Shown here in pieces: positions 1,750-2,239 of a stretch of 4,815 nt of DNA. The translations under genes were made by a program, and so were the position numbers. The stretch's first letter is position 1. Each line of letters opens with the position of its first letter. The stretch lies in IMG/VR virus record IMGVR_UViG_2681813229_000016; one strand, written 5' to 3'. This DNA is from a virus. Taxonomy: Duplodnaviria; Heunggongvirae; Uroviricota; Caudoviricetes. The notes beneath the pieces were generated by a model. That model saw only the letters and a list, made by a program, of their open reading frames with translations. It searched no databases and was not told the DNA's origin.

Positions 1750-2019
1750 TTACATCATCATTTCGCCGCCAGGCTGAGGCTCACTGCTACCGTCAGGCTG
1801 AGACACAACGCCATCTGAAACAGCACTGTCACCCGCGCCGTCTTCAGGCTCAGGAGCAGCCGGTCCCCCCAGCAGCTCATCCAGAATGGCATCCACTTCA
1901 GCATCAAGACGCGCCTCAAGATTCTGGCGGAGTTGCTGTTTCAGTGCGCTTCTGACTTCTTCAGAGCGCAGGACGTCCTTCACTGCTTCAGCAGTGACCA
2001 GAGATTTTATTTCTGACAT
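1750..2019 (-). CDS. Hypothetical acidic protein (89 aa), helical N-terminus with Asp/Glu/Pro/Gly-rich tail
   Basis: Internal ATG at 2019..2017 of the 141-aa track ORF, chosen because the upstream extension overlaps the 2057..2239 ORF and looks non-coding. Product MSEIKSLVTAEAVKDVLRSEEVRSALKQQLRQNLEARLDAEVDAILDELLGG...GGEMMM. SD is weak (GAGAAA). Location upstream of holin resembles small DUF-type ORFs seen in Stx/lambdoid prophages (possibly DUF826-like; unverified). Confidence 0.45.
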   Translation of the reverse strand: MSEIKSLVTAEAVKDVLRSEEVRSALKQQLRQNLEARLDAEVDAILDELLGGPAAPEPEDGAGDSAVSDGVVSQPDGSSEPQPGGEMMM

Positions 2020-2056
2020 GGGATTTTCTCGTTGAAAGGTGTTGTTAAGAAAGTTG

Positions 2057-2239
2057 CTACGAAATGAGAGGCTCTTCGGGTTTTGTTCCGGCTGACTGGC
2101 TGGCGCTGATTTTTTCCGCCGCCGCGGCATCAATCTTTTTGCGTATATAGTTCCGGATAACCTTATACCCGCCACTTACCAGATATAACGTGCACACCAC
2201 CGTGCAGAAATACAATAAAATAAGCTGTACAAATCTCAT
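2057..2239 (-). CDS. Hypothetical small single-pass membrane protein (60 aa)
   Basis: ATG 2239..2237 with strong SD GGGAGGG 4 nt upstream. Product MRFVQLILLYFCTVVCTLYLVSGGYKVIRNYIRKKIDAAAAEKISASQSAGTKPEEPLIS has an N-terminal hydrophobic helix (res ~4-22) followed by a basic then acidic tail. About 60 aa, as in small E. coli prophage proteins (possibly DUF1378-like; unverified). Confidence 0.55.
   Translation of the reverse strand: MRFVQLILLYFCTVVCTLYLVSGGYKVIRNYIRKKIDAAAAEKISASQSAGTKPEEPLIS

Follow-up and report, generated by a model that had tools for sequence, protein, structure and literature searches.

A DUF1378-DUF826 gene pair beside the lysis cassette of Escherichia prophages: gene models, selection and a tentative link to lysis timing

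Results

Gene pair and gene models

The DNA analysed here, a stretch of 4,815 nucleotides (nt) from a tailed-phage record of IMG/VR (IMGVR_UViG_2681813229_000016), referred to below as the window, carries a pair of small genes of the protein families DUF1378 and DUF826. All genes of the window lie on the minus strand, in the late/lysis region of a lambdoid prophage. The features that define the pair are the following.

2057-2239, minus strand: DUF1378 gene, 60 amino acids (aa), ATG start (open reading frame list, Pfam PF07125, PHROG 494)
1750-2019, minus strand: DUF826 gene, 89 aa, from the internal ATG at 2019 (Pfam PF05696, PHROG 311)
1750-2175, minus strand: 141-aa gene model with a GTG start (open reading frame list)
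2020-2175, minus strand: upstream extension of the 141-aa model, made up of the 3' part of the DUF1378 gene and a 37-nt spacer, non-coding in that frame
2243-2249, minus strand: Shine-Dalgarno sequence GGGAGGG before the DUF1378 gene, with 4 nt between its GGAGG core and the ATG (sequence reading)

An initial annotation, made from the letters of the sequence, had proposed DUF1378 and DUF826 as candidate families for these two open reading frames (ORFs), and profile searches bore it out with full-length Pfam matches above the gathering cut-off, which is 25 bits for both families: the 60-aa protein matches DUF1378 over profile positions 1-59 of 59 (E 5.8e-40, 135.7 bits) and the 89-aa protein matches DUF826 over positions 1-73 of 75 (E 1.2e-34, 118.7 bits). 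PHROG 494 and PHROG 311, to which they respectively belong, are both labelled 'unknown function'. Both proteins have copies with 100% identity in E. coli O157:H7 LSU61. The copy of the 60-aa protein bears the annotation WP_001213059.1 (DUF1378 family protein) and that of the 89-aa protein WP_001289717.1 (DUF826 domain-containing protein), and the same two annotations are found on plasmid pDCE7-1. Both are already-known, annotated members of two Pfam families. The strong Shine-Dalgarno sequence noticed at the outset before the 60-aa ORF is the GGGAGGG at 2243-2249, and the purine-rich block preceding this ATG is conserved in the intergenic alignment.

Coding constraint was estimated from 44 unique DUF1378 and 66 unique DUF826 nucleotide sequences pooled from fetched loci. 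The ratio of nonsynonymous to synonymous substitution rates (dN/dS) is 0.15 over codons 1-44 of DUF1378, against 1.28 and 2.08 in the other two frames, and 0.35 overall over the DUF826 core (codons 1-51), or 0.12-0.28 within lineages, against 1.27 and 1.81 in the other frames; the ratios are rough, with synonymous sites near saturation in the deepest comparisons, although the contrast between frames is still clear. Both ORFs are under purifying selection, in the annotated frames only, and neither the lack of conservation nor the frame disruption that the initial annotation had envisaged as a refutation was found.

The second gene can be read in two ways. The ORF list opens its frame at the GTG at 2175, giving the 141-aa product that the initial annotation had suspected of being wrong. 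In most close relatives no stop codon interrupts this frame for 45-66 codons before the ATG, and long models stand in several database entries, for example P0121 (141 aa) and ECs1211 (148 aa). However, the Pfam DUF826 match within the 141-aa model begins only at residue 53, which is the internal Met, the PHROG 311 profile likewise begins there, the RefSeq gene models are 60 aa for DUF1378 and 89 aa for DUF826, and PHROG 8301 turns out to be the mis-called long form of DUF826. The DUF826 ATG, opening MSEI or MPEI, is present in all relatives and lineages compared, and in close relatives the in-frame stretch upstream of it begins at various start codons and is 38-58 codons long. In divergent relatives that stretch is either without a start codon or closed. 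Where the extension overlaps the DUF1378 gene, dN/dS is 0.12 in the DUF1378 frame versus 1.66 in the frame of the extension. It is thus very improbable that the 141-aa frame gives the true product of the second gene, and we are nearly certain that both ORFs are real DUF1378 and DUF826 genes with the short gene model. A programmed frameshift joining DUF1378 to the DUF826 frame at CGC-AAA-AAG was considered and rejected: DUF826 lies in the +1 frame, for which this is a poor site, and the extension frame is unconstrained.

Protein features

The 60-aa protein had been described as having one N-terminal transmembrane helix and a charged tail, and its composition agrees with this. Residues 3-25 are strongly hydrophobic and form the single such stretch (Kyte-Doolittle 19-residue maximum 2.28, starting at residue 3), residues 26-60 have an isoelectric point (pI) of 9.7 with 7 lysines plus arginines (K+R), and residues 26-44 (KVIRNYIRKKIDAAAAEK) form a predicted basic amphipathic helix, beyond which the tail is variable. 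The AlphaFold model is a single helix over residues 2-49, and an alignment of 44 members shows that these proteins of about 60 aa have a conserved hydrophobic stretch in common at the N-terminus, LLYFCT..C.LYL.SGGY. Neither a signal-peptidase site nor a lipoprotein site was seen. A single crossing of the inner membrane is predicted for DUF1378: a very short N-terminus would lie in the periplasm and the basic helix and tail in the cytoplasm, where, by the positive-inside rule, the C-terminus should be.

The 89-aa protein, for its part, is helical and acidic with a low-complexity tail, as first described. It has a pI of 4.06 and 19 acidic residues (D+E) against 7 K+R, and AlphaFold predicts helices at 10-17 and 20-49, with a predicted local distance difference test score (pLDDT) above 90 over residues 21-50 and below 50 over the tail, residues 52-89. 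Among 22 members, 34 columns of the core, which comprises the 51 N-terminal residues from the initiator Met, are invariant. The tail differs from member to member in both length and sequence and is rich in Pro, Glu and Asp; that of the window is acidic, rich in Pro, Gly and Ser, and ends in MMM. These features suggest that a two-helix domain lies in the cytoplasm and runs into a disordered acidic tail whose C-terminus is hydrophobic. Wherever DUF1378 lies upstream, the DUF826 tail always ends in a short hydrophobic run (MMM, encoded at 1750-1761 of the minus strand in the window), which may be MMM, MML, TML, TLL, TTL or ILP.

Searches of the pair against NCBIfam and PADLOC gave sub-threshold noise only, and profile searches of PDB sequences gave a best E value of 0.3 or worse, so that neither protein has a relative of solved structure there. 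Foldseek comparison of the DUF826 model with PDB and BFVD returned nothing with E below 0.9, a helix with a disordered tail being uninformative for a fold search. In base composition the pair is indistinguishable from the neighbouring genes.

Distribution and genomic context

Word-indexed searches of 5.8 billion proteins found 132 clusters of DUF1378 and 105 of DUF826, and all of the named ones are from Escherichia or Shigella. An exhaustive profile search of 1.84 billion representatives gave 55 proteins, each of them a short DUF826-like sequence or a fragment; two repeat proteins met in this search were discarded, their matching stretches being chance-like. In a search of 185,579 species, each represented by one genome, Cedecea neteri was the only one with a confirmed DUF1378, and a stretch of 37% identity in a metagenome-assembled genome of the Acidimicrobiales is probably spurious. 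Matches to a 901-nt segment that surrounds the pair are present in 2,422 of 5,426 complete E. coli genomes, a single genome having as many as 13 of them, and in 293 phage records, most of which are Stx-converting (Shiga toxin-converting) phages. The two families are nearly confined to lambdoid prophages of Escherichia and Shigella.

The loci fall into three arrangements, in which NanS-p stands for the sialate O-acetylesterase gene and S21-type for the class II holin gene.

Class A (this window): NanS-p, about 150 nt, DUF1378, 19-40 nt, DUF826, 75-80 nt, S21-type holin, then optional YdfR, endolysin and Rz
Class B (33 loci): NanS-p, DUF1378 and a divergent DUF826 (43% identical to that of the window), with no holin within 4 kb
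Class C: endolysin, Rz/Rz1 and a short DUF826 (~60 aa, Pfam 69 bits, no long acidic tail)

Among class A loci of IMG/VR found through DUF1378, DUF826 is the next gene in 80/80 and the S21-type holin follows in 76/80, usually 75-80 nt after DUF826, the four loci without it ending early or being rearranged; as the IMG/VR loci are related by descent, such counts are of non-independent events. A Mom-family gene follows the pair in most class B loci, and tail genes U and V follow in L086, the sole locus examined that far. Class C has neither DUF1378 nor the esterase, and terminase genes follow in most loci (other genes elsewhere); its DUF826, a relative at 40-50% identity, is found in Salmonella Fels-1-like prophages, one named relative being Salmonella phage Fels-1, and the holin, where sampled, is lambda-S-type (L134).

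The long acidic tail of DUF826 is present in every lineage with DUF1378 upstream and in none without it. In four IMG/VR loci (L008, L011, L019 and L030, at ~4221-4680) DUF826 breaks off after residue 52, where it is fused to a fragment similar to the C-terminal part of NanS-p (38% identity), which points to recombination inside the tail region.

Transcription signals and candidate RNAs

The intervals on either side of the pair contain the following signals.

1713-1741, minus strand: terminator-like hairpin directly after the DUF826 stop codon (-20.9 kcal/mol, z -2.6; weak U tract here)
2266-2381, plus strand: candidate antisense small RNA (sRNA) unit in the interval from the esterase stop codon to the start of DUF1378 (fold z -3.9)
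2266-2271 and 2289-2294, plus strand: its -35 element TTGACA and -10-like element TTAAAA, with a 17-nt spacer
2334-2373 and 2375-2381, plus strand: its hairpin and T7 run

All 33 unique variants of classes A and B have a stable hairpin on the coding strand that starts 8-15 nt after the DUF826 stop; its stem occurs in at least 6 different sequences, and in most variants a U-rich tail follows. The hairpin probably insulates the holin gene from transcription that has not been modified by Q. No minus-strand promoter-like site for the pair was found by a consensus scan, which was for sigma-70 only, so that a weak or non-sigma-70 promoter is possible. The conserved intergenic motifs fit an antisense promoter rather than a sense one: of 53 unique intergenic variants, 44 retain the antisense motif and its terminator, although spacers and stems differ between them and the stems show compensatory changes.

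In place, strand and size the antisense unit resembles PasC, an Hfq-binding sRNA of E2348/69, and it lies close to the position of PasA (PMC8550237, table S6). Some intergenic variants of Stx phages align with the PasC terminator. The likeness to the Pas RNAs (PMC8550237; bioRxiv 10.64898/2026.05.13.724894) is thus one of interval, between esterase and holin, with the promoter/terminator unit of the window at the PasC position; they differ from the pair in that the RNAs are on the opposite strand and that E2348/69 has PasA/PasC in its place. PasA and PasC themselves were looked for in the window and rejected, BLAST finding no similarity and nothing being shared beyond 8-12-mers.

The conserved hairpins and the candidate antisense sRNA flanking the pair, together with the presence of PasA/PasC in the same interval in other prophages, could be taken to mean that the ORFs are untranslated and that the region acts at the RNA level only, through terminators and sRNAs. 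This is extremely improbable given the strong, frame-specific excess of synonymous change in both ORFs, the conservation of start and stop codons across relatives at 40-100% identity and the strong Shine-Dalgarno sequence of DUF1378.

Published observations on the pair

The sole paper that names both DUF1378 and DUF826 calls their function unknown (PMC10462455). In a deletion study of the Stx2 phage Sp5, the pair, as ORF48 (ECs1210, 59 aa) and ORF49 (ECs1211, 148 aa, which is a long DUF826 model of 58 + 90 residues), was removed en bloc with ORF47, and the delta-ORF47-49 mutant belongs neither to the nine mutants unable to form plaques nor to the two in which lysogeny was reduced or the three whose yield rose (PMC5155283). 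Because the mutant is absent from these defective and enhanced classes, the pair is dispensable for induction, plaque formation and lysogeny in K-12, as judged from plaque and lysogen counts and not from lysis timing. The Sp5 primer B2F maps to the last three codons of a 90-aa DUF826 allele in L075 and also matches L060, L063, L067, L073, L074, L078 (one mismatch) and L080, which fits ECs1211 at 148 aa; it has no match on L076. On the upstream side, the 3' part of primer B1R was placed in none of the loci and B1F only once, at an unrelated position in L082, and the left end of the deletion is therefore known only from the name of the mutant.

ECs1211 also appears in a microarray list from uninduced Sakai, 3.3-fold lower on entry to stationary phase (PMC2241611), a signal that may come from spontaneous induction or cross-hybridising paralogues. 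Two other literature leads were discarded: 'DUF1378' in a paper on ArdC is a misprint for DUF1738, and the holin in a paper on Stx2e (PMC12571312) is a different one, of 130 aa.

Discussion

Our tentative reading is that the pair is a dispensable, late-expressed modulator of lysis timing at the inner membrane, to which we would give a probability of roughly 0.3. The genes would most likely be transcribed on the Q-antiterminated late transcript, or together with nanS-p, because no sigma-70-like promoter was found on their strand, and the hairpin after DUF826 would stop unmodified polymerase ahead of the lethal holin gene. Late in infection DUF1378 could serve as a membrane anchor and, through contact of its basic helix with the acidic tail of DUF826, bring that protein to the inner membrane on the cytoplasmic side; the pair could then adjust the moment of holin-triggered lysis, as a modulator of timing and not as a required component of lysis. 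In Escherichia and Shigella prophages of the Stx type the pair and NanS-p form a fixed unit that follows the Q/stx region and in most phages precedes the S21-type holin. The arguments for lysis timing are that the DUF826 lineages, lineage B excepted, adjoin a lysis cassette, that the acidic DUF826 tail co-occurs with DUF1378 and that expression is probably late. Class C DUF826 lies directly after Rz/Rz1, and the lysis cassette is therefore the only neighbour common to all holin-linked DUF826 lineages. The dispensability of the pair is compatible with a modulator role.

Other evidence weighs against this reading, and part of it speaks for an accessory pair unrelated to lysis. Genes of this kind in lambdoid late operons, such as stx, nanS-p and bor, are called 'morons'. 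In lambdoid phages, accessory genes are commonly inserted on either side of the lysis cassette, for which reason the adjacency of pair and holin is weak evidence. Like such genes, the pair lies between Q and the lysis genes, is patchy among relatives and is followed by a terminator. DUF1378 would then be an inner-membrane protein of benefit to the lysogen or the phage, for example through phage exclusion or an effect on the envelope, and DUF826 an independent cytoplasmic effector, their position being simply the usual slot. Prophages PP2 and PP5 of the enteropathogenic E. coli strain E2348/69 have the esterase and the S21-type holin without the pair; class B loci keep NanS-p, DUF1378 and DUF826 under strong constraint (dN/dS 0.12) although no holin is found within 4 kb, so that the pair is kept by purifying selection without an adjacent holin; and in Cedecea DUF1378 stands alone in a P2-like prophage, between a gene of the tail-fibre region and a D12 methylase gene. 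The hairpin found in all class A and B variants separates DUF826 from the holin gene and ends the unit in a terminator-like structure of its own. DUF826 occurs with two unrelated holin classes, which disfavours a specific holin-binding site, and searches of Pfam, PHROGs, PDB and BFVD revealed no similarity of either protein to holin or antiholin families; neither matches a holin profile, and the cassette has an S21-type holin of its own. Identical DUF826 cores are found with both juxtamembrane variants of DUF1378 (K-type and R-type), and therefore the two genes recombine with one another and no co-adaptation is seen. The deletion in Sp5 had no reported phenotype, growth included, and the change of the ECs1211 transcript between exponential and stationary phase in uninduced Sakai would suit a gene expressed in the lysogen, subject to the doubts about that signal given above. 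Nevertheless, the consensus scan detected no coding-strand promoter belonging to the pair, a point in which it also differs from the 'moron' genes and which makes expression probably late rather than in the lysogen; PADLOC gave no match to known defence or exclusion families; and in unrelated Salmonella prophages DUF826 again adjoins the lysis cassette. We regard the accessory explanation as possible and almost as likely as lysis timing.

A third explanation ties the pair to the gene before it. The NanS-p esterase lies upstream of DUF1378 in every Escherichia or Shigella locus that extends far enough, including the 33 class B loci without a holin, and the pair might work with the enzyme in its membrane association, release or regulation. 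However, E2348/69 has the esterase without the pair, DUF826 occurs without it in the Salmonella-type loci and DUF1378 without it in Cedecea, the interval from the esterase to DUF1378 contains a terminator and a promoter in antisense orientation, and the linkage is explicable by common descent of one cassette, all of which makes a partnership with NanS-p unlikely. At the other end of the range, lysis timing could be given a more definite form, that of a new two-part timer in which DUF1378, a membrane anchor bearing a basic cytoplasmic helix, would hold its acidic-tailed cytoplasmic partner at the membrane and so delay or advance the triggering of the holin. We consider this doubtful, somewhat less so than a link to NanS-p. 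If true, it would represent a new class of holin regulators unrelated to RI/RIII, LydB and the dual-start antiholins, and it would determine when, and in what quantity, Stx phages release Shiga toxin.

Two known systems are useful for comparison with the lysis-timing reading. In phage T4 the antiholins RI and RIII, a small membrane-tethered protein and a small helical cytoplasmic protein, jointly modulate the holin, which would make them the closest functional analogy to the mechanism proposed here for DUF1378 and DUF826. They differ in that RI acts through a periplasmic domain whereas the tail of DUF1378 is predicted to be cytoplasmic, and in that the T4 genes are not adjacent to the holin gene; the pair, moreover, matches no other Pfam family. 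In pinholins of the phage 21 type, the dual-start antiholin S21-71 is an N-terminally extended form of the holin itself. The window has the same type of lysis cassette, and intact relatives of its holin start with MYQMEK, which contains two Met codons, but DUF1378 and DUF826 are separate proteins unrelated to the holin.

The pair is very common in E. coli yet dispensable for phage growth, and in this sense the finding is an ordinary one, concerning families that were already catalogued without an assigned function. What is gained is a corrected DUF826 model (89 aa, and not 141 or 148), a map of the genomic contexts and a link to published deletion data. In Stx phages the pair lies between the toxin genes and the lysis genes, and if it does tune lysis it would influence the amount and the timing of Shiga toxin release.

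The holin gene and other features of the window

The initial annotation had placed the pair immediately upstream of the holin gene, which is right as to position, but the gene itself is not intact, a net deletion of 56 nt having split it. The remaining genes and matches of the window, from the holin remnant outwards, are listed below.

1515-1674, minus strand: remnant of the S21-type (class II) holin gene (affected region 1515-1703; junction 1641-1642)
1166-1510, minus strand: YdfR/DUF1327 gene, 114 aa, between the holin and endolysin genes
582-1115, minus strand: endolysin, 177 aa, with a hydrophobic N-terminal segment (from translation)
244-504, minus strand: small ORF, PHROG 1115/4493, unknown function, probably 60 aa from the ATG at 426
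100-231, minus strand: small ORF, PHROG 4906, unknown function
1-91, minus strand: start of an Rz-like protein (sequence reading)
2387-4324, minus strand: NanS-p-type sialate O-acetylesterase, 645 aa (Pfam DUF1737, SASA and DUF6645)
4465-4631, minus strand: STnc100-type sRNA match (Rfam 101.6 bits, gathering score 47), upstream of the esterase gene
4639-4806, minus strand: DUF3927 gene, matching PHROG 1470

In the holin gene, 58 nt that are present in all relatives (3142-3199 of L001) are replaced by 2 nt at 1641-1642. According to BLAST and translation against L001, the deletion removes the first transmembrane segment and shifts the frame, so that the gene is split in two frames, and the Pfam match covers only profile positions 26-63 of 64. 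The top complete E. coli genome matches listed all align as two pieces, one on either side of the junction, and contain the additional 56 nt, and the 30-nt deletion junction was not found in IMG/VR or in JGI metagenomes. Unless the assembly is at fault here, this prophage copy probably cannot use its own holin to lyse the host.

Some of the surrounding genes vary among relatives. The YdfR/DUF1327 gene is present in only some of them, and the two small ORFs between endolysin and Rz, which have hydrophobic segments and correspond to RefSeq proteins of 60 aa and 43 aa in pDCE7-1, are replaced by an antirepressor gene in others. At the opposite end, PHROG 1470, matched by the DUF3927 gene, is described as 'TciB-like inhibition of cell division or resistance to colicin', and STnc100 is related to the PasD sRNAs, which have been found at this position upstream of the esterase (2026 preprint).

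No single record matches the entire window in one piece, and the window is a mosaic with parts at 1-487 and 488-4815. Positions 1643-4815 are 99.9% identical to O157:H7 LSU61, and the left end, with the small ORFs and Rz, matches O103/O121 strains and plasmid pDCE7-1.

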